Below the pieces are notes generated by a model. It was not told the origin of the DNA, made no database searches, and saw only the letters and a list, made by a program, of their open reading frames with translations. From Dehalococcoidia bacterium (GTDB taxonomy: Bacteria; Chloroflexota; Dehalococcoidia; SZUA-161; SpSt-899): a stretch of 64,000 nt of DNA. The translations under genes were made by a program, and so were the position numbers. This document shows positions 7,579-63,269 of this stretch, piece after piece (position 1 is the first letter of the stretch; the number at the start of each line of letters is the position of its first letter). The DNA is taken from the NCBI GenBank assembly GCA_048539495.1, contig JBLYPS010000008.1:837-64836 (forward strand). The letters are read 5' to 3'.

Positions 7579-8128
7579 GTTGCCTCCTCCAGGTCGTCAC
7601 CAGGAGCAGCAGGCCAACAGCGACGAGGAAGAGTGGCCACAGTCTGTCCCAGCGGAACCACCAGAAAAAGTTAAAATTAGCTGCCAAGAAAAAGAGACCC
7701 ACCACGACGAGGATAATGGCAATGAAGTTGCGACGCCGCCGATGAATCCTGTCCCGCTCTTCAGCCTCCGCTTCCTCCTCGCTAAATGTGGAACGTATCT
7801 CCTCTCCGACTTCGGCAGCGGTCTTCCTCATCTCCTCCACCTCCTCCCCAAATGCGTCACGTATCTTCTTTCCAAGTTCGGCAGCGGTCTTCCTTATCTC
7901 CTCCACATTCTCCCGCACCGTCTCCTTGGGCTGCGCCGTCTTTGAACCCTCCAGCGGAACGACGATAGCCATGATGATGTAGGCCAGGATGCCTATCCCG
8001 TTGGCAAAAACCAGCAGAACCATTACCAGGCGGATCACTGTCGGATCCACACCCAGGTATCTGGCCAGCCCCCCGCACACCCCCCAGATCACCCGGTCGC
8101 TCCGACTGCGATAAAGCCTCCTCTCCAT
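7571..8128 (-). CDS. PspC domain-containing protein
   Basis: The N-terminal LYRSRSDRVIWGVCGGLARYLGVDPTVIRLVMVLL is the PspC domain. There is an internal duplicated acidic segment (EEIRKTAAELGKKIR / EEMRKTAAEVGEEIR) and a C-terminal TM helix. Confidence 0.8.
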   Translation of the reverse strand: MERRLYRSRSDRVIWGVCGGLARYLGVDPTVIRLVMVLLVFANGIGILAYIIMAIVVPLEGSKTAQPKETVRENVEEIRKTAAELGKKIRDAFGEEVEEMRKTAAEVGEEIRSTFSEEEAEAEERDRIHRRRRNFIAIILVVVGLFFLAANFNFFWWFRWDRLWPLFLVAVGLLLLVTTWRRQHG

Positions 8129-10152: not shown

Positions 10153-11478
10153 ATGAACACCACTGACGATGAAGACCCCGACCACATTAACCGTGCCCCA
10201 CCGACTGTCGCTCTTCAGACCGTTGGCTGCAAGCTCAATCAGGCGGAAAGTGAATCTCTGGCATGTAGATTCCGCGGTGCCGGGTTTGGCGTAGTAGCCC
10301 CCGATCAAGACCCCGATGTCTACATTCTCAATACCTGCACCGTGACTCATATCGCCGACCGTAAGTGTCGGCACCATCTGCGATCTTTCCGTCGAGCCAA
10401 TCCCCGTGCCCTGGTTCTGGCTACCGGTTGCTATGTGGAGCGGGACGCGGCCGGAGTCCACATTGAAGGGGTTGATCTCGCTGTCGGCAACACCGATAAG
10501 GATCGCCTGGTGGAGATAGTTACCGGCCGACTTGAAAACCGTGTCCGTAGACCGTTGGCCGTGTCCGGACACGGATCACGTATCCCGGACACGACATTCA
10601 ATGGCTATGAGGCGCAATTGTTCCGCACGCGGTCGCTGGTCAAGGTTCAAGACGGATGTAATCAGTGCTGCTCTTATTGTATCGTGCCGCATGTCCGGGG
10701 ACAGGAACGCAGCGTGCCTGCGGAACAAGTGGTGACCGAGGTCAAGGATAGAGCTAGCAGGGGATACCAGGAGGTCGTCCTCACCGGAACCAGAATTGGA
10801 GCCTATAAGGGGGGGCTTGCGGGGTTGGTGCGGCAAATCCTGGATGACACGGCCATCCCACGTCTGCGGCTTTCTTCACTTCAACCCGGGGAACTACCCA
10901 CCTCATTTATCGAGCTCTGGAGCGACAACGGACGGATATGCCGCCACCTGCACCTTGCCCTTCAAAGCGGCAGCGATTCGGTGCTTAAGCGTATGGGGCG
11001 TGGATATTGCACCGGCGAGTACGAGGAGACGGTGAATTTGGTTCGGGACGGGATGCCCGATGTTGCCATTACCACCGATGTCATTGTGGGCTTCCCCGGC
11101 GAGAGCGAAAAGGAATTCGAGGAGAGCTATCGCTTCTGCGAGAGAATCGGCTTTGCCGGTTTGCACATCTTCCCCTATTCGGCGCGCCCGGGTACTCCAG
11201 CATCCCGGATGCCCGGCAAGGTTCCCGAGAAGATCAAGAAGTCTCGGAGTCGGATCATGATTGAACTGGCAGGCCGCAGTGTCCGGGACTTTCGCCGACG
11301 GTTTTCAGGCCAAACTATGCCGGTATTGTGGGAGGAGCGAAAGGGGGAAGGTCTCTGGGTCGGGCACACCGGTAACTATATCAAGGTAATTACCAGGAGC
11401 GTGGAGTCACTCCGGGGTTATCTGCTCGAGACTAAGCTGGGCGGTGGATATGAAGATGCCCTGTGGGGTGATATATGA
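10153..11478 (+). CDS. mtaB: tRNA methylthiotransferase, MtaB/MiaB-like radical SAM enzyme
   Basis: The MTTase N-terminal domain (VALQTVGCKLNQAESE...ILNTCTV) and a radical-SAM CxxxCxxC (CNQCCSYCIVP). It carries an in-frame 'gtgtccggacac' palindromic insertion at 10541-10598. Confidence 0.75.
   Translation: MNTTDDEDPDHINRAPPTVALQTVGCKLNQAESESLACRFRGAGFGVVAPDQDPDVYILNTCTVTHIADRKCRHHLRSFRRANPRALVLATGCYVERDAAGVHIEGVDLAVGNTDKDRLVEIVTGRLENRVRRPLAVSGHGSRIPDTTFNGYEAQLFRTRSLVKVQDGCNQCCSYCIVPHVRGQERSVPAEQVVTEVKDRASRGYQEVVLTGTRIGAYKGGLAGLVRQILDDTAIPRLRLSSLQPGELPTSFIELWSDNGRICRHLHLALQSGSDSVLKRMGRGYCTGEYEETVNLVRDGMPDVAITTDVIVGFPGESEKEFEESYRFCERIGFAGLHIFPYSARPGTPASRMPGKVPEKIKKSRSRIMIELAGRSVRDFRRRFSGQTMPVLWEERKGEGLWVGHTGNYIKVITRSVESLRGYLLETKLGGGYEDALWGDI
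10541..10598. repeat. palindromic element, 'ccgtgtccggacacgg...cgtatcccggacacga' family, inserted in frame in mtaB
   Basis: The same core recurs at 23333-23380 (in nadK) and 21196-21262. Shorter copies are at 7206-7220 and 8224-8238. Confidence 0.8.
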
Positions 11479-11556
11479 TTGGTAATTGGTGATTGGTGAT
11501 TGGTGATTGCAGACCAACTAATCACTAATTACTAATCACTATTCACTAATCAAGGG
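11476..11556. repeat. heptanucleotide palindromic element (gtgattg units / caatcac arms)
   Basis: attggtaattggtgattggtgattggtgattgcagaccaactaatcactaattactaatcactattcactaatc. Relatives are at 21118-21180 and 32988-33060. Confidence 0.8.
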
Positions 11557-12828: not shown

Positions 12829-13558
12829 TCCTTCGACTCCGCTCAGGACAGGTCCACAGCAGAGACTCTGCCTCACCTTCGGTCGGGGCGAGGAGGTAAA
12901 ATACATCACCCATCTGGATGTCATGCGCCTCTGGCACAGGGCACTCCGTCGCGCCGGCATGCCTCTTTTGTACTCGGAGGGGTTCAATCCCCGTCCCAGA
13001 ATCGCCATCGCCGCTCCGCTTGCCCTGGGGGTCACCAGCGAAGCGGAACTGATGGACGTCTTCCTGGAGAGGAAGGTCTCCCTGCATTTCTTTACCAGGG
13101 TGGTGAGCGAGCAGTTGCCACAGGGCATCGAGATTTTAGAGGTGCGGGAATATTGGCCTAAACTCCCTTCGCTCCAATCCCAGTTGCGTTTTGCGGAATA
13201 TCGGGTTGAGGTGGAGTCAAGGAAGTCGCCAGAGGAAGTGAGCCACGCGCTTCGCTCCTTGCTGGCAACCAGAAGCCTGCCCTGGCAACATGCCCGAGAC
13301 AAGGAAACCCGCCGCTACGACCTCCGGGCGCTGATCGGAGCCCTCTGGCTTGTCGATCAGGGGTCAGGGGTCAGGAGTCAGGGATCAGCCCCCACCCCGC
13401 ACCCCCGACAACTGAACGATGCCCGGTATACGCTTGGCATGAGACTGCGCCATGATGCCGGCGGTTCGGGCAGGCCGGAGCAGGTAACTGCTGCCCTGGG
13501 ATTCTCGGAATTTCCCAAATCGATTCACCGTGTCAGACTGATTTTGGCTTCAAGATGA
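12800..13558 (+). CDS. TIGR03936/DUF2344 family radical-SAM-associated protein
   Basis: YITHLDVMRLWHRALRRAGMPLLYSEGFNPRPRIAIAAPLALG matches the family signature. It contains an in-frame element at 13355-13420. The start is uncertain (overlaps the upstream gene by 29 nt). Confidence 0.6.
   Translation: MKRFLSSRGDPSTPLRTGPQQRLCLTFGRGEEVKYITHLDVMRLWHRALRRAGMPLLYSEGFNPRPRIAIAAPLALGVTSEAELMDVFLERKVSLHFFTRVVSEQLPQGIEILEVREYWPKLPSLQSQLRFAEYRVEVESRKSPEEVSHALRSLLATRSLPWQHARDKETRRYDLRALIGALWLVDQGSGVRSQGSAPTPHPRQLNDARYTLGMRLRHDAGGSGRPEQVTAALGFSEFPKSIHRVRLILASR
13355..13420. repeat. composite heptamer element ('ctgatccc' arm, C-rich core, 'cagttga' arm), reverse orientation, in frame in a CDS
   Basis: gatcaggggtcaggggtcaggagtcagggatcagcccccaccccgcacccccgacaactga. 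Same family as 20340-20410, 29950-30025, 36598-36665 and 60700-60765. Confidence 0.75.
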
Positions 13559-13595
13559 GGTTAGCCGTAGCCCTCATTACCTATTACCTCTTACC

Positions 13596-13645
13596 TCTTT
13601 AGCATGTAGGGAGTAGGGAGGCTATCCTCTACCCGCTACTCGTTT
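13596..13645. repeat. intergenic palindromic element ('cgtgtag.../gtagggagtagggaggcta' family)
   Basis: Related to 19410-19475, 35172-35250 and 35798-35875. Confidence 0.7.
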
Positions 13646-14463: not shown

Positions 14464-16149
14464 TTGAAAGTGTCTTCGAAGATCGCCCAGCAGTTGCCCC
14501 GCCGGGTAGAGCGCTTTATCGCGGAGCATGGCCTCTTAGAACGAGTCGAGAGTCGAGAATCAAGAGTCAAGAGTCAAGAGGGAGGGGAGGGGGACTCCAG
14601 ACTCCAGACTCCAGACTCTAGACTGCTAGTGGTGGGGGTCTCGGGTGGGACTGATTCCATCTGTCTGCTCCACGTTTTACTCCAGCTAAGGGATAAACTC
14701 GGCATTGATTTGCATGTGGCCCATCTGAATCACCAGTTGCGAGGTGCGGAGGCGGATGCCGATGCGGAGCACGTATCGAATCTGGCGCGGCAGCTCGGCA
14801 TCGCCGCTACCATTCAGAAACGCGACGTAACCGAGTCGAGAGTCAAGAGTCAAGAGTCCAGAGTCCGGGGCGGCAGGGATGGGGACTCTCGACTCTCGAC
14901 TCTCGACTCCAGACTCTTGTTCGACTCTCGTTCCTCGATTGAGGAGGCGGCCCGGGAGGTACGCTATGCCTTCTTCGCTGAGGTAGCTCGGGCTACGGGC
15001 GCCGGCGCGGTAGCGGTGGGGCATACCGCCGACGATCAGGCCGAGACCCTCCTGATGCACCTGATTCGGGGGACGGGGCTTCTGGGGCTCCGAGGCATGC
15101 AGCCGCGCTCACGGTGGCGCTTGCTCGATGGGGCTCAACTGACGGTGATCAGACCGCTTCTGGCGGTCAGCCGGGAGGAGACCGAAGCCTACTGTGCTGC
15201 CTGCGATCTTTCCACACGGCTGGACTCCTCGAATATCTCTTCCAAATACCTGCGCAACCGCATCCGCGCCGAGCTTATGCCAGTGCTCATGGAATATAAT
15301 CCCCGCATCCGCGAGAGCCTGTCTCGTGCTGCCTGCACGATTGCTGCCGATATTGCTCATCTCGATGAGGAGGTGGCACGGCTCTGGGATTCTGTGGCAG
15401 TGGAACGACACTTCGACTCGGCTCAGGACAGGCACGACGCCGTAGCGCTGGACAACAGAGCGTTTTCCGCCCTTTCCCCGGCGCTCCGGCGGCATCTGTT
15501 GCGCTCCATCCTGGGACGATTGCTGGGGGACCTGCGAGATATTGAGTTAGTTCACATTGAGGGCCTGCTCAATGTCCTGGTAAGGCCGGCGGGTAAGAGG
15601 CTCTCCCTGCCCGGCGATCTTGTATTCCATGGCAGCTACACTGAAAGCCTCATCACCAGGTCCAAGGATGCTCCCTGTCCCTTGCCGCCGCTTACAGGGG
15701 AACACCACTTGGCTATCCCCGGCGAAACCATGCTGCCAGGCTGGCGGGTCAGAGCAAGGGTTATCGAAAGCAAGCCCTGTCCCGTCGATGATGCCGGCTA
15801 TAATCACGCCCCCAGAACCGAAGACTTTTGGGGGGGGCCTGTAATTGGGGGCAAAGATTCTTGTCGGACATCATACAAAGCTTGCCTCGATTTCGATCTT
15901 ACCGGCACACAGCTCGTTGTCAGAAGCCGCCGTGATGGCGATAGGTTCCAGCCACTGGGGATGGGTGAGTCAAAGAAGCTGCAGGACTTCATGATGGATG
16001 CCAGGATCCCCCGTGCCTGGCGGGACCGCGTGCCATTGGTCTGTGCCGGAGAACAGATCGTCTGGGTGGTGGGCTGGCGCATCAACCACCGCGTGAGGGT
16101 GACCGACTCCACCAGGCGAGTTCTCCGACTCGAGTTTGAGAGGATTTAG
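14464..16149 (+). CDS. tilS: tRNA(Ile)-lysidine synthetase
   Basis: PP-loop SGGTDS (LLVVGVSGGTDSICLL) and a C-terminal TilS domain. The 561-aa length is inflated by two in-frame palindromic insertions (14543-14625, 14832-14940). It uses a TTG start. Confidence 0.85.
   Translation: MKVSSKIAQQLPRRVERFIAEHGLLERVESRESRVKSQEGGEGDSRLQTPDSRLLVVGVSGGTDSICLLHVLLQLRDKLGIDLHVAHLNHQLRGAEADADAEHVSNLARQLGIAATIQKRDVTESRVKSQESRVRGGRDGDSRLSTLDSRLLFDSRSSIEEAAREVRYAFFAEVARATGAGAVAVGHTADDQAETLLMHLIRGTGLLGLRGMQPRSRWRLLDGAQLTVIRPLLAVSREETEAYCAACDLSTRLDSSNISSKYLRNRIRAELMPVLMEYNPRIRESLSRAACTIAADIAHLDEEVARLWDSVAVERHFDSAQDRHDAVALDNRAFSALSPALRRHLLRSILGRLLGDLRDIELVHIEGLLNVLVRPAGKRLSLPGDLVFHGSYTESLITRSKDAPCPLPPLTGEHHLAIPGETMLPGWRVRARVIESKPCPVDDAGYNHAPRTEDFWGGPVIGGKDSCRTSYKACLDFDLTGTQLVVRSRRDGDRFQPLGMGESKKLQDFMMDARIPRAWRDRVPLVCAGEQIVWVVGWRINHRVRVTDSTRRVLRLEFERI
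14543..14625. repeat. heptanucleotide palindromic element, family A (gagtcga/gagtcaa units, GGGAGGGG core, gactcca units), in frame in tilS
   Basis: gagtcgagagtcgagaatcaagagtcaagagtcaagagggaggggagggggactccagactccagactccagactctagact. It translates as ...ERVESRESRVKSQEGGEGDSRLQTPDSRL.... Confidence 0.85.
14832..14940. repeat. family A palindromic element (second copy in tilS, in frame)
   Basis: cgagtcgagagtcaagagtcaagagtccagagtccgggg...ggggactctcgactctcgactctcgactccagactc. Confidence 0.85.
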
Positions 16150-16479
16150 GCGCTTAGCACCGCCACATCCTCAAGAGATTGTGGATATGGTTATTGGGAT
16201 TTCCGAGATTGCCTTTTTGGTTCTGGCTCATGCGAGTCATGGTTAGTGCAGTAAGGGTGCCGAGGGGGATATTTGCATTATAGAGCACAATGATCTCACA
16301 TATGCTATAATCTATCCAAGTCTTATGACCGTAACTACTCAATAGGTCGAAATGTGTGATAATGCATCAAATCTCGGAGCTATTCGAGGATATCCAAACC
16401 GTACTTATAAATAGAGAACAAGCTGCCAAAGCTTTTTCTACTTGCTGAATTAGAAAGCCAGCGAGCTGGGAAAACAGGC

Positions 16480-16887
16480 ATGGAAGTTGGTTCCCTACGA
16501 GAACGAGTATTGGTCTCTTTATTGATCTACAGGTTTGGCGAAGATAACGTAACCACAGATATACCCATTACAGCCCCCGAGGTGGATGTATTACTTTTTG
16601 GTAATCCTATCTCAATCAAAACTAAATCAGGGTCAGGCTATTCAGGCATAAAACTGATATGGACTGTAGACGCTCAAAATGCCCGTGAGTTCTTAGACTC
16701 CTATCGCCCAACTTGTGACATGATGTTCGCCCAGATAATATGGAACGGAAAAGGCGGCCTGTTCTATATCCCACTCTCTACGCAAACCGAAGTATTTGAA
16801 GAACTGGGTAACAACTCTTATATCAAACTACCTGGATTAGGAACAAACCCAAGAGGGGTGGAGATTAGTTCAAAAGCACTTCAGTAG
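16480..16887 (+). CDS. hypothetical protein in an AT-rich island (possible restriction-endonuclease remnant)
   Basis: A 135-aa ORF in low-GC DNA immediately upstream of a truncated DNA methyltransferase. I recognise no motif. Confidence 0.3.
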   Translation: MEVGSLRERVLVSLLIYRFGEDNVTTDIPITAPEVDVLLFGNPISIKTKSGSGYSGIKLIWTVDAQNAREFLDSYRPTCDMMFAQIIWNGKGGLFYIPLSTQTEVFEELGNNSYIKLPGLGTNPRGVEISSKALQ

Positions 16888-16927
16888 AAAACCATACATT
16901 CCGCTTCATGGCTATATTATTGAAGGA

Positions 16928-17413
16928 ATGCAAAAAATCGGTTTTCTCATGCGCGGTGAAATAATTTGGAACAAGGCTTCAAGTGCCAGTACTTCAACTG
17001 CCTGGGGGAGTTGGCTTTCGGCTGCGAATCCTGTTTTGAGAGACATTCATGAGTATATTCTGATTTTCTCTAAAGACACCTTTTCAAGAAGAAGCAAAGA
17101 TAAGCAAAATACGATTAAGAAAGAGGATTTCCTTGAGTGGACAAAAAGCGTGTGGGCATTTCCAGCAGTCTCGGCAAGAGAAATAGGCCATCCAGCGCCG
17201 TTTCCAGAAGAACTTCCCCATCGCTTGATTCAATTGTACTCTTTCAAGGACGATGTTATCTTGGACCCTTTTGCGGGCAGTGGCTCGACTTGCATCGCAG
17301 CTATTAAAGACAACCGAAATTATGTTGCCTACGATGTTGATCCCCAATATGTCAAACTGGCAAAAAAACGAATTGCCGTACTTAAGGATCAATTAAAGCT
17401 GTTCGATCACTGA
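16928..17413 (+). pseudogene. 5'-truncated N4/N6 DNA methyltransferase (beta-class, C-terminal part only)
   Basis: Carries the HPAPFP motif and the AdoMet motif I (DPFAGSGST) with the C-terminal tail of beta-class MTases. It lacks the N-terminal DPPY catalytic motif. It lies in AT-rich DNA. Confidence 0.65.
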
Positions 17414-17462
17414 TCTTTGGAACTGCCCCCCAGGGACACTTGCAAATGAGGCCCGCACATTC

Positions 17463-19400
17463 CTACCTTCTCAGCACCCGCGGCAAGATCCCTCGAATGT
17501 AATCGTCAGAGGCTAAGTCCAGTCCGGGAACTGCCTCTGTGGAGACCTGGATGAGCTCCCCGAAGAACTCGTTCTCGATCGCCATCCTGGTCTCCTCGTT
17601 CCGCCCTTCAACGCGGCAGATGATCATCGGCTGAGTGTTTGACTTCCGAATTAGAGCCTGCCCCACCCACCGCCCTTCCCCATCAGCCCATTTGATCAGG
17701 CCACCGTCAGTGGTGTCAATGGCATAACCCTTTTGGCGAAAGAGGCTGACAACCACATCCACCACCTCCTGCTTCTCGGTCAACACATTGGTGGCGAGCC
17801 GGATGTTCAGCTCCGGCGTCGTCGGGTATCGCGGCACCCCTTCGTCGAGGTCAATGAAAGTCTTCCCCTCCTTCAGCCCATTGGCAATAACCGTAAGGAG
17901 CTTGACGGTTGCGAGAAGCGCATCATCGAAAATCCAGTTCTCCTCGTGCCCCGACATCTGGTGCCCGGAGAGCTCGGCCGCCAGCACCACCGGCTCCCTG
18001 TTTTTTCGGAGATCTATCTTCTTCCCCTCCCACTGCACCTCCGGCAGGTCAGCCCGAATCCCCCGAATCAGAGCCTTCGTACCGTCTTTGATGAAAGCAT
18101 GTCCGGTGGGGCTGATGATATATTCTCCACCCTGAGCGGTTATGAACTCCTCGGTCATCCGCGAGAATTTCACCTCGCCCATGAATCGAGGCCTCCCGGG
18201 GCGTTTCTTTTTCTCATGCTCCTCAATGATCAGCTTAGCCTGGATTGCGAGTGTTCTATCCCCCTCCACCACCCTCCCATCCGATCTGACGTATATCGCC
18301 CGATCGCCATCCTCATCGAATCCAATCCCCACCACTTCTCGGTGACAACCGGCAGCTTCTCTTATCACCGCCTCCTCAAGCTGTCGGCGATACTTCGCTT
18401 TGATGGGGTCGGGGATGTGGGCCGGGAAGGAGCCATCGGGGGTATCGTTGAGGGCTACTACCTCGGCTCCGAGATCGGAATAGACCCCTTTTGTCCGCCA
18501 CGCCGAGCCATTGCCGAAGTCGATAACCACCATTATCCCCTCAAATGGATGTTTGATCGCCGTAGCCGGCTGCTCGAAATCCGGGGGCAGATCGAGGGCG
18601 CTCCTGATCTGGGCCCACTTTTTGCTATCCAGCCCCTCGGGGAAACCCAGTGCAGCGACGGTATCGAGAAGGGCTTTTAAGTCTCTCCATCTCTTAATCA
18701 GGTATATCCATATCTCCCTTCCCAGACGGCAGTTGGCCTTCACCAGTTCATTGTGGTATCGGACCACCTCGCCTTCCTCAACGGCGATAAGTCTCCCTTC
18801 GCCCTCCAGAAAATCCCCTTCAAGTACCGTTCGCTTGATCTCAAGCATCTGGTCGGCACTGATGCTGGTGATGAATCCATCTTCGCTCTTTATCACCTGT
18901 TTGAGGCCATTGTCTTCCGACTCATTGTGACTGGCAGTGATATTCACCCCACCGTCAGCATTGAGATAAGGGATGGAAAAGTAGAGTTCCGGGGTTGAGG
19001 TAACGCCGACATCATAAACATTCACCCCCGTGGAAAGAATGCCCTTAACTAGCTCACGACGGATTCTTTCTGTTGAAAGCCTGATCCCTCCGCCGACCGT
19101 GGCGGTGAGTCTAGAGTCTAGAGTCTGGAGTCTAGAGTCCCCCTCCCCTTGCCTCGATACTCGATACTCAATACTCGATTGTATATTTCTCCGCAGAAAG
19201 CTGCCATACCCCTTCCCGAGATAGTAGCATACCCTGTCCGAGAGATATTCGTCCGCGACGGCGCGTACATCGTAGGTCTGGAAGATCACGGGATCGATCA
19301 ACATGTAGTCGAGGTCGTCCCTGACCTCGACAGACTCCTGTATCTTCTCCCGATTCTGATAATAGTCCATCCATCTGCTCCTTTCCGAAAAGATAGCCAC
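17463..19400 (-). CDS. phosphoglucomutase/phosphomannomutase family protein (alpha-D-phosphohexomutase)
   Basis: Phosphoserine loop ITASHNESEDNG and Mg-binding FDEDGDR. 645 aa, with an in-frame hybrid palindromic element (19100-19172) giving ...SRQGEGDSRLQTLDSRL.... Confidence 0.8.
   Translation of the reverse strand: MAIFSERSRWMDYYQNREKIQESVEVRDDLDYMLIDPVIFQTYDVRAVADEYLSDRVCYYLGKGYGSFLRRNIQSSIEYRVSRQGEGDSRLQTLDSRLTATVGGGIRLSTERIRRELVKGILSTGVNVYDVGVTSTPELYFSIPYLNADGGVNITASHNESEDNGLKQVIKSEDGFITSISADQMLEIKRTVLEGDFLEGEGRLIAVEEGEVVRYHNELVKANCRLGREIWIYLIKRWRDLKALLDTVAALGFPEGLDSKKWAQIRSALDLPPDFEQPATAIKHPFEGIMVVIDFGNGSAWRTKGVYSDLGAEVVALNDTPDGSFPAHIPDPIKAKYRRQLEEAVIREAAGCHREVVGIGFDEDGDRAIYVRSDGRVVEGDRTLAIQAKLIIEEHEKKKRPGRPRFMGEVKFSRMTEEFITAQGGEYIISPTGHAFIKDGTKALIRGIRADLPEVQWEGKKIDLRKNREPVVLAAELSGHQMSGHEENWIFDDALLATVKLLTVIANGLKEGKTFIDLDEGVPRYPTTPELNIRLATNVLTEKQEVVDVVVSLFRQKGYAIDTTDGGLIKWADGEGRWVGQALIRKSNTQPMIICRVEGRNEETRMAIENEFFGELIQVSTEAVPGLDLASDDYIRGILPRVLRR
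19100..19172. repeat. hybrid palindromic element: family A left arm (gagtcta units) plus family B-like right arm (cgatactcgatactcaatactcga)
   Basis: gagtctagagtctagagtctggagtctagagtcccc ctcccc ttgcctcgatactcgatactcaatactcgatt. Confidence 0.8.
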
Positions 19401-19409
19401 AGAGAAATT

Positions 19410-19475
19410 GGCAGGGCGTAGTAGGTAGCGTGTAGCCTCCCTACCCCCTACACGCTATGCGCTACACGCTAATTG
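19410..19475. repeat. intergenic palindromic element ('tagcgtgtag/ctacacgcta' family)
   Basis: gtagtaggtagcgtgtagcctccctacccctacacgctatgcgctacacgcta. Confidence 0.75.
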
Positions 19476-22313: not shown

Positions 22314-22317
22314 TGAG

Positions 22318-22380
22318 TTTGTAGAGTTTGTAGAGTTTGTTGAGTGGGGGAGGGGCGGCCTCTATAACTTAACAAACTTC
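22318..22380. repeat. 9-nt-unit palindromic element (gagtttgta x3 ... caaactt)
   Basis: gagtttgtagagtttgtagagtttgttgagtgggggaggggcggcctctataacttaacaaacttc. Confidence 0.7.
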
Positions 22381-23793: not shown

Positions 23794-23887
23794 CGGAATT
23801 AACCCTTCAGGGTTTCATGCTGCGTGATGAAAGGCTAACCGGAATTAACCCTTCAGGGTTTCATGCTGCGTGATTACAGGCTAAAGC
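23794..23887. repeat. tandem direct duplication (2 x ~47 bp) in the nadK upstream region
   Basis: cggaattaacccttcagggtttcatgctgcgtgatgaaaggctaac / cggaattaacccttcagggtttcatgctgcgtgattacaggctaaag. Confidence 0.85.
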
Positions 23888-32199: not shown

Positions 32200-33225
32200 T
32201 TATTCGCCCTGTCGGGAGGCTGAAGCCTCCCCTACCAGTATGCCAGCAGTTGTACGCACCAGAAGAGCCTCCATACCCTCCCCATTTAATCGCCTCGCCA
32301 GTGCCTCTCCCTCTACTTCATCGGGCACCAGCGTGAAGAGCATTGGCCCCGCTCCGACGAGGTGAACGCTGCTAGCCCCGGCGGCGAGAAATCTCCTGCG
32401 ATACTCATCGATCTGGGGGAAGAAATCAAAGGCCACACCTTCAAAGGTATTACATAGCAGAGAGGATTGCAAGGGGCGACCACGGCGCAACTCGCTCACC
32501 AGCTTCCGTGTAGCAGCACCGGTTGTGAAATGTGACGAGTCCAACAGGGAATACATTACAGCAGTCTTGGAGGGAACGGGGTCGATCGCTGGCTTCAGCA
32601 GCACCAGCCAGGTTGCAGGCAGCGTGGGAAGAATGGTGATTTTCTCCCCGCGCCCTTCCGCCAGGGCTGTGCCGCCGTAAATGAAAAACGGGGCATCCGA
32701 ACCTATTCTCGCTGCCAGTTGGCTCAGATTCTCGCGAGATAGCTCAAGAGACCAGAGTTGATTTAGCCCCCTCAGTACCGCAGCCGGAATACTGGCACTT
32801 GAGCCGAGGCCGATCCCGCCGGGGATAGCCACGCTTTCCGCTCGAATCACCGCCCCCTTACGAGTCGAGAGTCGAGAGTCGAGAGTCGGGGAGGGGCGGG
32901 GGACTCCAGACTCCAGACTCCAGACTCCAGACTCCAGACTCAGCAGCCTCGCCGCCTTTAATACCATCTTTTCAAACGACGCCATTAGCGAGTGATTGGT
33001 GAATGGTGAACGGTGATTAGTCCCCATCCCCCAAGGCGAGTGATTGGTTTGACCGGTGCCAGGGTCGAGGCACTCAAATTTGATCTCCGTTGCCGGTTCG
33101 AAAGAGAGTACGTCCACGAGATTGATGGTCTGGAGAACGCTCGAGATCTCGTGATAGCCATCATCTCGTCTCCCCAGTACCTCAAGGGTCAAGTTCACCT
33201 TGGCATGGGCCGAAAGGGTTAACAT
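32200..33225 (-). CDS. ispE: 4-(cytidine 5'-diphospho)-2-C-methyl-D-erythritol kinase
   Basis: AHAKVNLTLEVLGRRDDGYHEI N-terminus and the GHMP kinase motif (IPGGIGLGSSAS). The annotated ORF's first 25 codons are encoded by repeat 33232-33310, so the Met at 33225 is the likelier start. An in-frame family A insertion at 32858-32945 gives ...LESGVWSLESGVPRPSPTLDSRL.... Confidence 0.85.
   Translation of the reverse strand: MLTLSAHAKVNLTLEVLGRRDDGYHEISSVLQTINLVDVLSFEPATEIKFECLDPGTGQTNHSPWGMGTNHRSPFTNHSLMASFEKMVLKAARLLSLESGVWSLESGVPRPSPTLDSRLSTRKGAVIRAESVAIPGGIGLGSSASIPAAVLRGLNQLWSLELSRENLSQLAARIGSDAPFFIYGGTALAEGRGEKITILPTLPATWLVLLKPAIDPVPSKTAVMYSLLDSSHFTTGAATRKLVSELRRGRPLQSSLLCNTFEGVAFDFFPQIDEYRRRFLAAGASSVHLVGAGPMLFTLVPDEVEGEALARRLNGEGMEALLVRTTAGILVGEASASRQGE
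32858..32945. repeat. family A palindromic element, in frame in ispE
   Basis: gagtcgagagtcgagagtcgagagtcggggaggggcgggggactccagactccagactccagactccagactccagactcagc. Confidence 0.85.
32988..33060. repeat. gtgattg-family element inside the ispE 5' region
   Basis: gagtgattggtgaatggtgaacggtgattagtccccatcccccaaggcgagtgattggtttgacc. Confidence 0.65.
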
Positions 33226-33231
33226 ACGTGA

Positions 33232-33310
33232 AAAGTTAGAGTTCTGAGTTTTGAGTTTAGAATCCATTCCCCTCCTCCCTCCTCGAAGCTCTATACTCAA
33301 AACTCAATAC
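33232..33310. repeat. family B palindromic element (reverse orientation) at the ispE / rsmA junction
   Basis: agttagagttctgagttttgagtttagaatccattcccctcctccctcctcgaagctctatactcaaaactcaatactg. Confidence 0.8.
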
Positions 33311-35171: not shown

Positions 35172-35250
35172 CTCCTTATTTAGCGTGTAGCGCATAGCGT
35201 GTAGGGAGTAGGGAGGCTACACACTACCTACTATCCGCTACACGCTGCCC
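35172..35250. repeat. intergenic palindromic element ('tagcgtgtagcgcatagcgtgtaggg...ctacacgct' family)
   Basis: ttagcgtgtagcgcatagcgtgtagggagtagggaggctacacactacctactatccgctacacgctg. Confidence 0.8.
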
Positions 35251-35797: not shown

Positions 35798-35875
35798 TTT
35801 AGCGTGTAGCGCATAGCGTGTAGGGGGTAGGGAGGCTACACGCTACCTACTACCCGCTACCCGATGGTGTGCTCT
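35798..35875. repeat. intergenic palindromic element, second copy of the 35172-35250 family
   Basis: ttagcgtgtagcgcatagcgtgtagggggtagggaggctacacgctacctactacccgctacccg. Confidence 0.8.
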
Positions 35876-35887: not shown

Positions 35888-37654
35888 TTAGAGATTACTG
35901 ATGTCGCGCGGCTTGCTGCCAAACTCCACCTTCTCCACTGGTGATTCGATCATCTCGGTGATGGCTGCCCCCGGCGCGACCATCGGGTAAACGTTCTCCT
36001 CGGGCTCGACCACGAAATCAATGAGGAAAGGCCCTGGATGATCCATCGCCTGCTGAATGGCGGGAATCACCTCAGCTTTGCTCCTTACCCTGAGGGCGGG
36101 CAGGCCATAGGCCTCAGCAAGCTTGACGAAGTCGGGGCCGCTAAGCGGGGTGGCGACATAGCGGCGCCCATAGAACATTTCCTGCCACTGCCGCACCATC
36201 CCGAGATAGCCATTATTGAGGATGGCTATCTTAACGGCAATATCGTCTTGAACTATGGTGGCCAGTTCCTGCACCGTCATCTGGAATCCCCCGTCGCCGG
36301 CGACACACCACACGCAGTCATCAGGGAGCCCTACCTTCGCCCCAACGGCTGCGGGCAGCTCAAAGCCCATCGTTCCTAATCCACCGGAGGAGATGAGACT
36401 GTTGGGCTTGTCGTAGCAATAGTGCTGCGCCGACCACATTTGATGCTGGCCGACGCCGGTGACAATGGTGGCCCTGCCGGCGGTAACCTGGTGAATCTTC
36501 TGTATCACATATTGGGGCAGTAGCTGCTCGGTTTCCCGAATCACGGTTGACGGATGCTCGCGGCGCCACTCTTCTATCTGCCGAATCCATCCGAGTCGGC
36601 AGTCGCCAGTTGGCAGTTGACAGTCCTCCGACCCCTGGCCTCTGTCCCCTGATCCCTCGATCTGCTTGTTCAACGACTGTAATACATTCTTGATGTCTCC
36701 CACGATGGGCACGCTCACCTTGAGGTTCTTTCCGATCTCAGCAGGGTCAATGTCAATATGAATGATCTGGGCGTGCGGAGCAAAACCAGATACCTTTGCG
36801 GTGGCTCGGTCGTCGAACCGCATTCCGATAGCGATGATGAGATCCGCGGCATCTACTGCCAGGTTGGCATAGGCCATGCCGTGCACGCCCAGCATGCCGA
36901 AGCTGAGGACGTGGCTTTCGGGGAAGCAGCTGATGCCCAGAAAGGTTGTGACAACCGGCACTTGAGCTTTCTCCGCCAGTTCCTTGAGCTCTTGGTAGGC
37001 TTTGGAGATGATGACCCCGCGCCCGGCGATGATCGCCGGGCGTTTCGCCTCGTTTATAAGCCTGGCCGCTTTCTTTATCTGCAATGGATGCCCCTGGACG
37101 GTCGGGCAGTATCCTGCCAGATTGACCCTGGCGGGGTAGGCGAAGGCAGCCTCATCGGTGAACACATCGCGCGGGACGTCAATGAGCACCGGCCCCGGCC
37201 GTCCGGTGGTGGCGATGTGAAATGCTTCCTTGAACACCTTAGCCATGTCCTCTACCCTGGACACCTGATAGTTGTGCTTGGTAATGGGCACAGTGATGCC
37301 GATGATGTCTATCTCCTGGAAGGCATCCTTGCCGATGAAATGTCTGGCGACCTGGGCGGTTATGGCTATCACCGGCGAGGAGTCGAGATGGGCACTGGCG
37401 ATGCCGGTGACCAGGTTGCAAGCCCCCGGTCCTGAGGTGGCAAAGCAGACGCCTGCTTTGCCGGTGGCGCGGGCATACCCATCGGCGGCGTGGGCCGCCC
37501 CTTGCTCATGGCGCACCAGGATGTGGCGCAGTTGGGGATACTGGGGCAGCACATCATACAGGGGCAAGATAGCTCCACCGGGATAGCCAAAAACGACCTC
37601 CACCCCCTCGTTAATTAGCGATTGGCAGAGCATTTGGGCACCATTCATTCTCAT
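35888..37654 (-). CDS. ilvB: acetolactate synthase large subunit (biosynthetic type)
   Basis: Thiamine-diphosphate enzyme N-terminal, central and C-terminal domains (GGAILPLYD..., GDGGFQM). An in-frame C-family insertion (36598-36665) gives ...GSGDRGQGSEDCQLPTGDCRLGW.... Confidence 0.9.
   Translation of the reverse strand: MRMNGAQMLCQSLINEGVEVVFGYPGGAILPLYDVLPQYPQLRHILVRHEQGAAHAADGYARATGKAGVCFATSGPGACNLVTGIASAHLDSSPVIAITAQVARHFIGKDAFQEIDIIGITVPITKHNYQVSRVEDMAKVFKEAFHIATTGRPGPVLIDVPRDVFTDEAAFAYPARVNLAGYCPTVQGHPLQIKKAARLINEAKRPAIIAGRGVIISKAYQELKELAEKAQVPVVTTFLGISCFPESHVLSFGMLGVHGMAYANLAVDAADLIIAIGMRFDDRATAKVSGFAPHAQIIHIDIDPAEIGKNLKVSVPIVGDIKNVLQSLNKQIEGSGDRGQGSEDCQLPTGDCRLGWIRQIEEWRREHPSTVIRETEQLLPQYVIQKIHQVTAGRATIVTGVGQHQMWSAQHYCYDKPNSLISSGGLGTMGFELPAAVGAKVGLPDDCVWCVAGDGGFQMTVQELATIVQDDIAVKIAILNNGYLGMVRQWQEMFYGRRYVATPLSGPDFVKLAEAYGLPALRVRSKAEVIPAIQQAMDHPGPFLIDFVVEPEENVYPMVAPGAAITEMIESPVEKVEFGSKPRDISNL
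36598..36665. repeat. C-family composite heptamer element, in frame in ilvB
   Basis: ggcagtcgccagttggcagttgacagtcctccgacccctggcctctgtcccctgatccctcgatctg. Confidence 0.8.
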
Positions 37655-37717
37655 GGCTCTTCTCCCTCTCCTAGATAGACCATACCATAGCTACCGTATC
37701 GGTGTCAACCAGAACGA

Positions 37718-37800
37718 GTTTTGAGTATTGAGTATCGAGTTTACAGGACGGGGTGGCCTCAAAACTCAGAACTCTAAACTCTTGACTCTTGACTCTTGAC
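37718..37800. repeat. family B palindromic element plus 4 tandem 'cttgact' heptamers (intergenic)
   Basis: gagttttgagtattgagtatcgagtttacaggacggggtggcctcaaaactcagaactctaaactcttgactcttgactcttgactcttgac. Confidence 0.85.
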
Positions 37801-37829
37801 TCTTGACATGGCATTAGGCTAAAATCGAA

Positions 37830-37900
37830 TTACGGTTCACGGTTCGGGGTTGGGCCTGCGTAACCATTGAACCTTGAACCTCGAACGTTGAACCCGTTGA
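37830..37900. repeat. heptamer palindromic element (ggttcac/gaacctt family)
   Basis: ggttcacggttcggggttgggcctgcgtaaccattgaaccttgaacctcgaacgttgaaccc. Confidence 0.75.
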
Positions 37901-37909: not shown

Positions 37910-39175
37910 GTGTATCAAAGGACTGTTGCGGACAATGGCCTGCGCATCGTAACCAGTAATATGCCTCACATCCGCTCGGTGTGCATCAGCATCTTTGTCG
38001 GTGCTGGTTCCCGCTACGAACCTGCTGAGCAAGCAGGGATCTCTCACTTTGTTGAACACCTCCTATTCAAGGGGACCCAACAGCGAGCAACCACTAAAGA
38101 GATATGCGAGGCTATCGAGGGGATCGGCGGGGTTCTTAATGGCGGTACCGATAAAGAGCTGTCGGTTTACTGGACTAAAGTGGCCCGCCCGCACTTCAGG
38201 ACTGCCCTGGACGTCTTAGCTGATATGATCTGTGGCTCTAAGTTCGATCCCCTTGAGATGGAGAAAGAGCGTCAGGTGATCATCGAGGAGATCAACATGA
38301 GCATGGATTCTCCCCAGCAGAGAGTGAACACGCTCATCGACGAGGTTGTCTGGCCAGACCAGGCTCTTGGGCGAGACGTCGCCGGAAGCAAAGAGATGGT
38401 AACTGCTCTCGCTCCTCAGGCCTTGCGTGGCTATTGGGGACGCCAGTATATCCCCGGCAATGCCGTCGCATCCGTTGCCGGCGACATAAGCCATGATGAG
38501 GTAGTGGCCCAGGTATCCTATATATTCGATGATTGGGCTGGTGAGGGGGCCACCAACTGGATTCCGGCTCGGGATGACCAGGATAAACCCCGCCTCTTAA
38601 CAGAGTTCAGGAAGACGGAGCAAGCTCATCTCTGTCTTGCCTTGCGGGGAGTTTCTAATTCTGATCCCGATCGCTTTGTCTTCGATTTATTGAACATTGT
38701 CCTTGGCGAAGGCATGAGCAGCCGTCTCTTCCTGGAGCTTCGGGAGCGAAAGGGATTGGCGTATGATGTTCACAGCTATGCGAGTCACTTCTTTGATTCT
38801 GGATCGCTGACTGTCTATGCCGGGGTCGAGCCGAAGAACATCGAGGCGGCCATCGAGGTTATCCTGGGTCAACTCTCCCGGTTCAAGGCGGAGGATGTTC
38901 CGGAATCGGAGCTTGTCAAAGCCAAGGAGATGGCCAAGGGTCGTCTGCTGCTTCGCATGGAGGATACCCGGAACGTCTCTGGCTGGATTGGAAGCCAGGA
39001 GCTCTTGACCGGGGAGATCAAGACTGTGGATGATGTGGTCTCCATAGTTGATGCTATCACCGCAGATGATATCCGGAGGGTGTCACAGGGCTTATTCCAT
39101 TCTGAGAAATTAAGCCTGGCTATCGTGGGTCCGGTTTCGGATGACATCCGGTTTCAGAAGCTGTTGGTGCTCTGA
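37910..39175 (+). CDS. M16-family zinc peptidase (pitrilysin/insulinase-like)
   Basis: Inverted zinc motif HFVEHLLFKG (HxxEH), with M16 N- and C-terminal domains. Confidence 0.85.
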   Translation: MYQRTVADNGLRIVTSNMPHIRSVCISIFVGAGSRYEPAEQAGISHFVEHLLFKGTQQRATTKEICEAIEGIGGVLNGGTDKELSVYWTKVARPHFRTALDVLADMICGSKFDPLEMEKERQVIIEEINMSMDSPQQRVNTLIDEVVWPDQALGRDVAGSKEMVTALAPQALRGYWGRQYIPGNAVASVAGDISHDEVVAQVSYIFDDWAGEGATNWIPARDDQDKPRLLTEFRKTEQAHLCLALRGVSNSDPDRFVFDLLNIVLGEGMSSRLFLELRERKGLAYDVHSYASHFFDSGSLTVYAGVEPKNIEAAIEVILGQLSRFKAEDVPESELVKAKEMAKGRLLLRMEDTRNVSGWIGSQELLTGEIKTVDDVVSIVDAITADDIRRVSQGLFHSEKLSLAIVGPVSDDIRFQKLLVL

Positions 39176-39178
39176 CAG

Positions 39179-39243
39179 CGAGTCCAGAGTCCAGAGTCAC
39201 GGGGAGGGGGACTCCAGACTCCAGACTCCAGACTCCAGACTAC
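39179..39243. repeat. family A palindromic element (intergenic)
   Basis: gagtccagagtccagagtcacggggagggggactccagactccagactccagactccagact. Confidence 0.85.
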
Positions 39244-60656: not shown

Positions 60657-60765
60657 TTGGAGTCGATAGTCGAGGGTCTGGAGTCTCCCGCCTTCCCTCC
60701 TGCATTCGGGGGCCAGGGGTCGGGGGTCAGGGATCAACCCCGCCCCCCGACCCCTGTCAACTGAG
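60657..60765. repeat. adjacent family A-like (60657-60700) and C-family (60700-60765) heptamer elements upstream of queA
   Basis: gagtcgatagtcgagggtctggagtctcccgcc... and ccaggggtcgggggtcagggatcaaccccgccccccgacccctgtcaactga. Confidence 0.75.
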
Positions 60766-62025: not shown

Positions 62026-62110
62026 CAGTCGAGAGTCCAGAGTCAATGGTCGAGAGTCCCCCCTACCGCCCCTCTGGTAACTGGTGACTCTAGACTCCAG
62101 ACTCTAGACT
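62026..62110. repeat. family A palindromic element at the dapL / hflX junction
   Basis: gtcgagagtccagagtcaatggtcgagagtcccccctaccgcccctctggtaactggtgactctagactccagactctagactctcc. It encodes the dapL C-terminal tail (...ESRVWSLESPVTRGAVGGTLDH) and abuts the start of hflX. Confidence 0.85.
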
Positions 62111-63269
62111 CTCCGTGCCACTTCTCCAATCTGACGAGCCCCTCCTGAAGGCGGTCATCCGGCGTGGTCAGAGAGATTCTGATGTAGCCCTCACCGCAGG
62201 CGCCGTATCCCGTACCGGGCGTGACGACGATCCCGACCTCATCCAGAAGTTTAGCAGCGAACCCGGCTGATGTATAGCCTTCGGGGATTCGGGCCCAGAT
62301 ATAGAGGCTTGCCCTGGGCGGCTTTGCCTCGATGCCAATCTTGCCCAGCACCTCAATCACCAGATCTCGCCGCCGTTGATAGATAAGATTATGTTCCGGG
62401 ATACAATCCTGGGGCCCGCTGAAAGCCGCTATTGCGGCATGCTGGATAGCCTGGGGGATGCCGGAATCGAGATTCGACTTCATCCGCATCAGGGCATTGA
62501 TCATCTCTTCATTGCCCACCGCCATCCCGACGCGCCAGCCGGTCATGTTGTAGCTCTTAGAGAGGGAGTGGAATTCAACCCCGATATCCTTGGCCCCCAG
62601 TGCTTGCAGGAAGCTCACCGGACGATAGCCGTCGAAAGCCACCTCCGTATATGGGGCATCGTGGCAAACAGCCAGCTCATACTTCTTGGCGAAAGCGACC
62701 GCTCGCTCGAAGAAATCGAGATGCGCCACTGCAGAGGTGGGATTGTTGGGATAATTCAGCCACAGAACCCTGGCCTTAGCGGCGACATCTGAGGGAATCT
62801 TTCCCAGATCGGGCAGGAAACCGTTCTCCTCCATGAGAGGCAGATAGTAAGGCTCACCACCGGCGAGTATGGTGCTCATGGAGTAGACCGGATAGCTCGG
62901 ATCGGGAACAAGGGCAATGTCCCCGGGGTCAATGAGACAGAAGGACATGTGGCCGATGCCCTCTTTGGAACCGATGAGCGGCAGGATTTCCTTATTGGGG
63001 TCTAAGGTGAGTCCGAAGCGGTGCTGGTACCAATCGGCGATGGCACGTCGCAACTGGGGCAATCCGTCTATCTCCGGATACCGATGGTTGATAGGGTCGC
63101 GTGCCGCCTCGCAGAGACGCTCGATGACATGGGGCGGGGTGGAGAGGTCGGGGTCGCCGATGGCAAAGCTGATCACATCCTCACCGCGGGCACGCTTCTC
63201 GGCAATCTTCCGGCTTATCCCCACGAAAAGGTACGGTGGTAGTTTTTCAATTCGTTTGGCAGTTTGCAT
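62043..63269 (-). CDS. dapL: LL-diaminopimelate aminotransferase-like (DapL-type PLP aminotransferase)
   Basis: MQTAKRIEKLPPYLFVGISRKIAEKRARGEDVISFAIGDPDL...NYPNNPT...SLSKSYNMTGWRVG (PLP-Lys region) fits a class I aminotransferase of the DapL type. The start was chosen at the Met at 63269; the ORF extends to 63314. Confidence 0.75.
   Translation of the reverse strand: MQTAKRIEKLPPYLFVGISRKIAEKRARGEDVISFAIGDPDLSTPPHVIERLCEAARDPINHRYPEIDGLPQLRRAIADWYQHRFGLTLDPNKEILPLIGSKEGIGHMSFCLIDPGDIALVPDPSYPVYSMSTILAGGEPYYLPLMEENGFLPDLGKIPSDVAAKARVLWLNYPNNPTSAVAHLDFFERAVAFAKKYELAVCHDAPYTEVAFDGYRPVSFLQALGAKDIGVEFHSLSKSYNMTGWRVGMAVGNEEMINALMRMKSNLDSGIPQAIQHAAIAAFSGPQDCIPEHNLIYQRRRDLVIEVLGKIGIEAKPPRASLYIWARIPEGYTSAGFAAKLLDEVGIVVTPGTGYGACGEGYIRISLTTPDDRLQEGLVRLEKWHGESRVWSLESPVTRGAVGGTLDH

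Follow-up and report, generated by a model that had tools for sequence, protein, structure and literature searches.

How can arrays of 7-nt repeats lie inside essential genes and leave them in frame? This question is raised by a 64,000-nt stretch of the genome of a Dehalococcoidia bacterium (GenBank assembly GCA_048539495.1, contig JBLYPS010000008.1, positions 837 to 64,836; hereafter the window, meaning the whole stretch analyzed). The original prediction, made from the sequence alone, had placed heptamer hairpin elements in frame in essential genes of the window, with two copies in tilS, the gene for tRNA(Ile)-lysidine synthase. On rereading the sequence, we recovered both copies in an intact open reading frame (ORF), and the motif GAGTCNNGAGTCNNGAGTC, with at most one mismatch allowed, had 39 matches in the window against 0.00 in 100 dinucleotide shuffles. 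The best explanation as a whole, to which we give an even chance, is that the elements would be selfish dispersed repeats spread by host machinery and filtered for reading frame where they lie in genes.

Heptamer elements in tilS and across the window

To locate the elements within the host protein, we compared the tilS sequence with its Pfam domains and with the corresponding genes of relatives. The domains TilS, TilS_C and, in two stretches, ATP_bind_3 (PP-loop) were recognized. The features of the gene are as follows.

14464..16149, plus strand: tilS, host gene, intact ORF of 561 amino acids (aa)
14543..14624, plus strand: family A element 1, TilS aa 27-54 (RVESRESRVKSQEGGEGDSRLQTPDSRL), at the junction of the N-terminal helix and strand beta1
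14833..14933, plus strand: family A element 2, TilS aa 124-157, interrupting the PP-loop domain after strand beta3 and before the helix that follows
15801..15885, plus strand: third TilS insertion, about aa 446-474, with a G-run and no clear heptamers

Element 1 reads (GAGTCGA)2 GAATCAA (GAGTCAA)2, then GAGGGAGGGGAGGGG, then (GACTCCA)3 GACTCTA GACTG, with five units on the left and about 4.7 on the right. Element 2 reads GAGTCGA (GAGTCAA)2 GAGTCCA GAGTCC, then GGGGCGGCAGGGATGGG, then (GACTCTC)3 GACTCCA GACTCTT..GACTCTC, with five units on the left and about six on the right. Relatives L002 and L003 lacked element 1, and L001 carried a shorter version with a right arm of 1.7 units against 4.7 in the window. 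At the second site, 98 nt stood in place of 20 nt of L001 and L002; L003 was also empty and L004 was filled. The third insertion, 85 nt against 10 nt in L001, is possibly a decayed element.

The original prediction had proposed that orthologue alignment would reveal lineage-specific loops, and this was borne out. TilS orthologues were mostly 473-477 aa long and lacked both segments, and relatives at 72-89% alignment identity (alignment A1) ranged from 478 to 646 aa with differing complements of inserts, some at other sites. The same held for IspE, with 355 aa in the window compared with 284-327 aa among close relatives and about 285 aa outside this group. The elements are thus lineage-specific insertions, not conserved parts of the proteins. 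Solved structures aligned on either side of the inserts (3A2K for TilS, 3PYD for IspE). In the AlphaFold2 model of TilS, which had a mean predicted local distance difference test (pLDDT) score of 73.5, values below 50 were found at aa 27-50, 129-156 and 439-468; these stretches coincided only with elements 1 and 2 and the third insertion, and the flanking strands and helices were modelled normally. The inserts are therefore predicted to form loops, as had been expected of them; these would be disordered, with intact secondary structure on either side. Such elements quickly vary the length of proteins and supply them with new disordered loops. TilS homologues assigned the window to an uncultured lineage of Dehalococcoidia (Chloroflexota), and a cyanobacterial context of the repeats was rejected on this ground; no record identical to the TilS of the window was found, and relatives were compared instead. 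Three sister assemblies (GCA_018725405.1, GCA_018725425.1 and GCA_002583255.1) were more than 99% identical to the window, and orthologous copies with sequence divergence were present in independent assemblies and samples; as far as their presence goes, the elements are not assembly artefacts.

Copy number at the first TilS site is a separate matter. Element 1 appeared as at least four tandem whole hairpins with a 57-nt period (19 codons) in L004 (840-1110) and L129 (1-230), and L128 (2928-3184) had a run of N at the same element; the single copy of the window may be a collapsed assembly. Broken contigs, collapsed arrays and apparently split genes make these elements a trap for annotation and assembly. 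At position 15826, within the third insertion, sister assemblies L128 and L129 had T3 instead of T4 before a G8 run, and this allele split tilS into gene calls of 404 and 62 aa; the difference may be a homopolymer sequencing error or a real frameshift. A 21-nt dispersed repeat, TTCGACTCNGCTCAGGACAGG, was found at 12832-12852 and 15412-15432, and also at 47104-47124 with three mismatches. One of its copies gives TilS eight extra residues (HFDSAQDR), and in L004 a family C heptamer hairpin stood in place of the first half of the TilS copy at the same site.

We further examined the anatomy of the elements. They are small, non-coding, dispersed sequences of 54-101 nt, in which two inverted arrays of tandem 7-nt units flank a G- or C-rich core; family A has the form (GAGTCNN)n, G-rich core, (GACTCNN)m. 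The window contained 22 runs of period 7, none of periods 5, 6 or 8, and one of period 9. Nine copies had been listed originally. GAGTC/GACTC-type arms were present on both sides at six of them (14543, 14833, 20761, 32862, 39180 and 62027); the copies at 19107 and 29289 had such an arm on one side only, and that at 60657 consisted of a left arm. Besides the TilS pair, the window thus holds seven more full or partial family A copies, and the insert peptides that had been quoted matched the translations exactly. Four copies (14543, 20761, 32862 and, less cleanly, 19107) had in common an asymmetric order of GA-spacer arm, G core and TG-spacer arm.

The description of the arms as reverse complements had to be corrected. 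Complementarity was confined to the 5-nt core, with none of 16 spacer pairs complementary in the five window copies that passed the arm filter. Within arrays, the 5-nt core had an entropy of 0.2-0.8 bit versus 1.5-1.9 bit for the 2-nt spacer. Owing to their unpaired spacers, most copies of family A escaped a repeat-finder and a strict hairpin scan. The long hairpin proposed for the RNA held for element 2 (-52.6 kcal/mol, z -3.1), was modest for element 1 (-30.4 kcal/mol, z -1.4) and failed for the copy in the phosphoglucomutase-family (PGM) gene, whose heterologous arms folded no better than shuffles (z -0.6). The predicted RNA hairpins therefore span the range from strong to shuffle-like, since the arms pair in their 5-nt cores only. 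An intergenic GGTGATT hairpin at 11479..11551 folded at -36.5 kcal/mol (z -8.7). The window has 38 G-rich cores, where about 16 would be expected, and period-7 sequence flanks about 20 of the 38. In a scan against Rfam 15, the elements yielded only sub-threshold microRNA-hairpin noise, the sole gathering-score match in the window being a group II intron domain, and a terminator scan found nothing terminator-like at the intergenic copies 35800, 37716 and 39180. The same architecture with another period was seen at 22315-22370, where a 9-nt-period array (GAGTTTGTA, 3.4 copies) is followed by a core GGGGGAGGGGCGG.

When all heptamer arrays were read, the 64 kb were found to hold about 33 elements. 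ORFs with conserved domains contain about 17 of these, with at most four per gene. They belong to at least six heptamer-arm families, of which family A is one. The other unit types are A' GAGT(T/A)TT, B TAGCGTG, C TCAG(G/T)(G/T)G, GGTTCAN, GGTGATT/CCAATCA, TAAGGGA and GGACACG, and the centre of nearly all families is GGGGNGGGG-like. Host genes are tilS, the PGM gene, a 553-aa ORF, a DinG-like exonuclease-helicase gene, ispE and the genes for acetolactate synthase, a DUF2344 protein and a radical-SAM protein; the ends of ksgA and of an aminotransferase gene are also touched. Peptides encoded by the coding copies, including LQTPDSR and VKSQEGGEGDSR, are rich in Ser, Arg, Gly and Pro. The elements outside tilS are listed below.

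10541..10603, plus strand: GGACACG-type hairpin in the radical-SAM gene, aa 130-151; L001, L002 and L003 lack it
13361..13414, plus strand: family C (TCAGGGG), 54 nt inserted cleanly and in frame in the DUF2344 gene
19101..19188, minus strand: element in the PGM gene, with a GAGTATC-type arm, G-rich core and GACTCTA-type arm; 88 nt versus 28 nt in L001
20335..20406, minus strand: family C composite in the 553-aa ORF, 72 nt versus 1 nt in L001
20761..20843, minus strand: family A in the 553-aa ORF, aa 94-121; GAGTCT at the junction in L001
29289..29367, minus strand: element in the DinG-like gene, aa 685-711; 87 nt versus 30 nt in L122 and L124
29940..30018, minus strand: family C in the DinG-like gene, aa 468-494; 80 nt versus 5 nt in L122 and L124
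30698..30775, minus strand: family A' (GAGT[T/A]TT) in the DinG-like gene, plus a half copy at 30257-30290
32862..32941, minus strand: family A in ispE, aa 120-147; the sense strand bears a C-rich core; shorter orthologous copy in P0122 and P0123
32986..33047, minus strand: ispE, CCAATCA array that has a G-rich core; the 21-aa insert is found in this species only
33239..33306, minus strand: family A' at the 3' end of ksgA and the 5' end of ispE, lengthening both proteins
36594..36651, minus strand: morphing units (GAGTCGG to CAGTTGA, then CCCCTGA-type) in the gene for the acetolactate synthase large subunit, aa 335-354
11479..11551, unstranded: the intergenic GGTGATT hairpin, a clean 73-nt insertion right behind a stop codon
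19413..19470, unstranded: family B (TAGCGTG), intergenic, in opposite orientation to 35800-35859
35800..35859, unstranded: family B, intergenic; another family B copy at 35190-35250
37716..37807, unstranded: family A', intergenic, followed by a GGTTCAN hairpin at 37862-37894
39180..39241, unstranded: family A, intergenic, between convergent M16 peptidase and groEL genes
60657..60756, unstranded: upstream of queA, a family C hairpin joined to a left arm of family A (partial)
62027..62112, unstranded: family A at the aminotransferase ORF (62043-63314, minus strand), overlapping its last ~23 codons

Copying, unit number and reading frame

To examine how new copies arise, we compared elements of one family at different loci. 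The family B copies at 19405 (minus) and 35795 (plus) were identical across about 55 nt, irregular units included, and the A' copies at 30690, 37710 and 30240 had about 45-50 nt in common. Because the same irregular order of units recurs at separate loci, new copies must have been made by copying an existing one, and not only by local expansion. Among about ten pairs of filled and empty sites, no target-site duplication was found, and 5-30 host bases were replaced at at least six. The empty allele resembled the unit at three sites (GGTGATA for GGTGATT units, GATCAAG for GATCAGG units and GAGTCT for GAGTCTG units); in the DUF2344 gene, the empty site GATCAAG|CTGATG is a mini-palindrome similar to the repeat unit. 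No seed sequence was present in the empty allele of TilS site 2, the PGM gene or the DinG-like gene at 29289.

The net lengths of the insertions differed between genes and intergenic DNA. At the six coding sites with clear boundaries, the net gains were 54, 78, 60, 75, 57 and 63 nt, all of them multiples of three, whereas neither of the two intergenic gains (73 and 95 nt) was; the sites at 20335 and 20767 were excluded from this count for overlapping BLAST segment boundaries. The window and the same-species locus L123 had six mismatches over about 12 kb and only two array indels: L123 had one more unit (7 nt) in the intergenic copy at 39180, and the window had three more units (21 nt) in the DinG-like copy at 29289. 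The right arm of TilS element 1 was also three units longer in the window than in L001. Arms thus gain and lose whole 7-nt units quickly, and within genes only net lengths divisible by three and stop-free frames were seen. Selection on length, which the original prediction had taken to be implied, is supported by these counts and by the three-unit coding as against the one-unit intergenic strain difference.

The sequence of the units explains why such insertions can be tolerated. The commonest units, GAGTCTG and GAGTCGA, are stop-free on both strands, and because 7 and 3 are coprime, every frame of a heptamer array encodes one and the same 7-residue peptide. In any phase and orientation an insertion is thus open, and only its total length matters. 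This gives a simple rule of tolerance, in which a stop-free heptamer reads alike in all frames and on both strands and selection acts on total length only. It also places a mutational burden on essential genes, in which changes of unit number other than multiples of three shift the frame.

Occurrence in other phyla and known repeat classes

To examine whether the class is confined to this lineage, a pattern of the form (GAGTCNN)2GAGTC, N6-36, GACTC(NNGACTC)2 was searched in a species-representative genome collection, where at least 116 stretches matched. The matches listed came from Acidobacteriota, Gemmatimonadota, Planctomycetota, Actinomycetota, Bacteroidota, the Candidate Phyla Radiation (CPR), Hydrogenedentota, Chloroflexota and Deltaproteobacteria. 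They included many per genome in Pyrinomonadaceae (Acidobacteriota), also on long-read chromosomes such as OY969475.1, and 17 of 117 elements among them lay at least 60 codons inside both ends of an ORF. Pfam recognized conserved domains around the insert in UvrA, PurL, AlaRS, HisRS, RecJ, DUF58 and DnaX.

Loci L010, L039, L061, L066, L117, L017 and L115: GAGTC heptamer hairpins in frame in conserved genes

The hosts of these hairpins are UvrA (anammox Planctomycetota), PurL (Saccharimonadales), AlaRS, HisRS and DnaX (Acidobacteriota), DUF58 (Planctomycetaceae) and RecJ (L117). Their insert peptides were of ESRV.. and DSRL..-type, like those of the window. In 821 kb of loci from other phyla, again among the matches listed, there were 300 runs of period 7, whereas no other period exceeded 26. 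When the score threshold was lowered, an inverted partner lay no more than 60 nt away from 78 of the 155 non-GAGTC arrays in these loci. Of 266 spacer pairs in other phyla, 123 were complementary, compared with the 0 of 16 in the window. Only one match was found in 2.9 million viral contigs, which argues against a phage vector. A protein-level census with a synthetic insert peptide as query returned two matches only, too few to be informative. The copies in UvrA, AlaRS, HisRS, RecJ and PurL allow the origin of heptamer repeats in bacteria to be tested by comparing genomes across phyla.

A heptad-periodic insert, YLQSPISNLQSPICS, was also seen at a different IspE site in P0139 (Chloroflexi bacterium, CG07_land); heptamer arrays therefore enter genes in other Chloroflexota too.

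The likeness to the Rickettsia palindromic elements (RPEs) suggested originally is partly upheld. According to the summary of Ogata et al. (2000, 2002) in PMC10969869, RPEs are about 150 bp long, with a family-specific consensus and a conserved peptide, and are found in Rickettsia only. The same summary describes in-frame palindromic selfish repeats in unrelated housekeeping genes, a fold-compatible extra peptide and several families per genome. The corresponding hosts here are TilS, IspE, the DinG-like protein, PGM, acetolactate synthase and the DUF2344 and radical-SAM proteins, and fold compatibility rests on prediction and on the alignment of solved structures on either side of the inserts. 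Unlike RPEs, the present elements are 54-101 nt long, have arms of 7-nt units that change in copy number and a G/C-rich core, and occur in Chloroflexota and several other phyla; the class is not confined to this lineage, and family A is one of at least six families. The elements represent an RPE-like case outside Rickettsia, with putatively selfish palindromes in essential genes at very high density (about 30 in 64 kb).

Heptameric simple-sequence repeats form the second known class. Among the long simple-sequence repeats of bacteria, those with heptamer units show the strongest over-representation (Mrazek 2007, as cited in PMC4679880 and PMC4692102), and other examples are the cyanobacterial short tandemly repeated repetitive (STRR) sequences and the Nostoc GGGGA(C/T)T repeats (PMC4692102; Mrazek 2007 as cited in PMC4679880). 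Xanthomonas GGGAATC arrays, studied as G-quadruplex formers and not for in-frame insertion, include 70-75 convergent pairs able to form stem-loops and are 7-11% intragenic (PMC4692102). The elements of the window have in common with these repeats the period-7 excess, convergent arrays, core versus variable positions and unit-number variation between relatives, and their TCAGGGA and GGGATCA units are similar to GGGAATC. In contrast to the Xanthomonas arrays, 89-93% of which are intergenic, about 17 of about 33 elements here lie in ORFs, essential genes included, and their dispersal by copying is shown. Convergent heptamer arrays (Xanthomonas) and in-frame palindromes (Rickettsia) have thus each been described already, and the elements link the literatures on heptameric simple-sequence repeats and on coding palindromes. 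In a literature search of incomplete coverage, we found no description of the class in Chloroflexota or as cross-phylum in-frame insertions; a search for the literal repeat strings returned primer sequences only.

Other repeats resemble the elements in part. Geobacter metallireducens has 49 heptanucleotide elements (GGACCGG x4), some within genes and proposed to be regulatory, but these are four direct repeats, with no inverted arms or frame analysis reported (PMC2700814). TAACTGA repeats occur as tandem arrays in distant phyla (Beggiatoaceae, cyanobacteria, Bacteroidetes) with no evident transfer mechanism (PMC4679880), and a CAACTGA/CAACTGC arm in L004 is identical to them at six of seven positions; they differ in being almost all direct and mostly intergenic, just upstream of start codons (PMC4679880). 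Palindromic amphipathic repeat coding elements (PARCELs) are also coding repeats with DNA dyad symmetry and a scattered phylogenetic distribution, but the protein motif that they encode, amphipathic and 25 residues long, lies in ORFs whose function is unknown, and they are not insertions into conserved enzymes (PMC2996958). [quoted passage not shown] MITEs are derived from insertion sequences and flanked by target-site duplications, and no such duplication was seen here. The arms of the present elements are inverted, with pairing confined to the 5-nt cores. REPs are extragenic and moved by REP-associated tyrosine transposases (RAYTs); about half of the elements here are intragenic, and the 64 kb covered by the window contain no RAYT. 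Nor do they look like intrinsic terminators: a scan for a GC-rich stem with short loop and T-run gave no terminator-like call at 35800, 37716 and 39180, and the coding copies lie inside ORFs.

Candidate mechanisms and the surrounding sequence

The explanation given an even chance above would work as follows. Copying would be carried out by the host replication and repair machinery, not by a dedicated transposase, by template switching or in break repair, primed where an arm unit offers microhomology. Slippage assisted by the hairpin would alter the number of units in steps of 7 nt, and purifying selection on essential genes would purge every out-of-frame variant. Polymerase slippage has been proposed for the heptamer excess of bacteria (Mrazek 2007, as cited in PMC4679880 and PMC4692102). 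No transposase domain was found in the 40 window ORFs scanned. A structure-driven process fits better than one sequence-specific enzyme with the many unit families in one genome and with the finding that half of the non-GAGTC arrays in loci from other phyla have an inverted partner.

Several observations weigh against this explanation. The core is far better conserved than the spacer, beyond what plain slippage would give, which hints at a core-recognizing protein or a pairing requirement. The GAGTC core recurs in many phyla, and a conserved enzyme or horizontal spread could account for this. The transposase scan spans 64 kb of the genome, and such an enzyme may be encoded elsewhere. The empty alleles are 13-23% diverged at the DNA level, so that the replacement of host bases may be later divergence of the loops. 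Finally, array copy numbers in short-read metagenome-assembled genomes can be collapsed, as the N-gap of L128 in TilS element 1 illustrates.

Movement in trans by an enzyme encoded elsewhere is rather unlikely in our judgement, though a serious contender. The elements would then be non-autonomous and MITE-, REP/REPIN-RAYT- or IS200/IS605-like, with a single-stranded hairpin as substrate and recognition of the 5-nt core. Near-identical dispersed copies, the defined polarity of family A, hairpin-forming arms, a core that is conserved while spacers vary and its presence in many phyla are all consistent with such an enzyme; relative L001 carries an IS110 transposase gene, with no link to the elements shown. 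However, the lack of target-site duplications and the frequent loss of host bases are unlike DDE transposition or the precise insertion of IS200/IS605. Six or more unit families with different cores in 64 kb would require several enzymes or a purely structure-specific one, and neither the window ORFs, by their lack of transposase domains, nor the viral contigs, with their single match, lend it support.

Birth on the spot is improbable; here slippage would expand a local proto-repeat of 7 nt, and the nascent strand, once folded back, would copy itself into an inverted arm, with no copying between loci. It would account for the very high diversity of units and for the three empty sites with unit-like sequence, where GTGATATGTGA in L001 is a 7-nt-spaced proto-repeat and another is the mini-palindrome. 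As a sole mechanism it is already contradicted by the identical irregular unit order and core at unrelated loci, and the asymmetric family A arms at four loci and the three sites that lack a seed also argue against it. On-the-spot expansion could still contribute to the birth of new families.

We are equally doubtful that the elements are useful, whether as expression-regulating or terminator structures of RNA or DNA, G-quadruplex switches, flexible linkers or contingency loci that slip in 7-nt steps. The copy at 39180 sits where relatives have a canonical GC-rich terminator hairpin (window 39175-39258 versus L122 4017-4233 and L124 2472-2560), and the enrichment of G-rich cores points the same way. 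Upstream of the M16 peptidase gene, a (GACTCTT)n array at 37778-37825 gives rise to a series of TTGACT boxes (-35-like), which are used by one promoter-like match. Against usefulness, the same peptides occur in unrelated enzymes and their presence varies among close relatives; the spacers show no compensatory pairing, the PGM copy folds no better than shuffles, and the intergenic copies gave no terminator-like call. Moreover, on/off switching of tilS or ispE would be lethal.

A further idea, which we regard as speculative and improbable, is that the inverted heptamer arrays of Chloroflexota, Acidobacteriota, Gemmatimonadota, Planctomycetota, CPR, Xanthomonas and cyanobacteria would be footprints of one conserved DNA-writing activity. 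This activity would lay a faithful 4-5-nt core and a sloppy 2-3-nt spacer on either side of a break or nick. Candidates could be telomerase-like stuttering synthesis, snap-back repair synthesis, or a nickase acting with a strand-displacing polymerase. The conserved core with freely varying, uncompensated spacers leaves room for such an activity, as it does for a dedicated core-recognizing enzyme. GAGTC is the site of the nickases N.BspD6I and Nt.BstNBI. In vitro, these nickases make polymerases produce repeats that carry the nickase site (PMC10520511). If true, the idea would account for the long-unexplained excess of heptanucleotide repeats in bacteria.

That the inserts are left untranslated, by ribosome bypass (known from T4 gene 60 and from byp elements in yeast mitochondria) or by removal from the mRNA or protein, is very improbable. 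Hairpins within coding sequence and the 1-nt frameshift in the third TilS insert of two other assemblies would suit it; yet every coding copy is a net multiple of three and stop-free and strain differences come in three-unit steps, both needless if the inserts were bypassed or excised, and there are no intein or intron features and no Rfam match. Metagenome assembly artefacts are scarcely credible, for although arrays coincide with contig breaks or N-gaps in sister assemblies and TilS site 1 has one copy against at least four, divergent orthologous copies occur in independent assemblies and samples, the ORFs are intact, the elements are shorter than a sequencing read, and the same class is present in complete long-read chromosomes such as OY969475.1.

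The distribution of arrays along the window was uneven. The stretch 39242-60037 (20.8 kb) had no heptamer arrays, compared with about one per 1.5 kb in the rest. It contains groESL and a defence island (HigB/HTH, a TIR protein, a group II intron fragment and type I-C CRISPR-Cas), which is not syntenic in relatives L122 and L124 and is absent from that position. The island looks recently acquired and hence element-free, which fits a slow accumulation of elements in long-resident DNA. Its type I-C CRISPR-Cas locus (Cas3, Cas5d, Csd1, Cas7, Cas4, Cas1) is at 48162-56232 and 57027-58246, with two arrays of the repeat GTCGCCCCCCACGCGGGGGCGTGGATTGAAAC. The group II intron domain is at 47244-47318 (plus strand; Rfam RF00029, 42.9 bits), and upstream of it a 502-aa ORF (44722-46230) had no Pfam match.

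Further differences from relatives were noted. A low-GC insertion of 1.3 kb relative to L001 at 16141-17464 looks like a decayed restriction-modification island; it contains a truncated N6/N4 DNA methylase (16928-17413) and an ORF (16480-16887) matching the restriction enzyme ThaI in L129. The idea of GANTC methylation was considered here and rejected: the methylase is nearest to TTHA0409-like and N4C enzymes and its neighbour matches ThaI, which gives no support for a GAGTC/GANTC system. Between the DUF2344 gene and tilS, an insertion of about 930 nt relative to L001 (13556-14489) carries a 210-aa MFS-transporter fragment, with heptamer arrays flanking at 13572-13630. Tandem repeats at 7774-7914 (66 nt, 2.1 copies, in a PspC-domain ORF) and 23794-23884 (46 nt, 2.0 copies) do not appear to be related to the heptamer elements. 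L001 (13270-14331, against window 19300-19474) has about 1 kb more where the PGM gene starts, and two ORFs are called there as a 1438-aa fusion; their counterparts in the window are separate ORFs with a family B hairpin between them.

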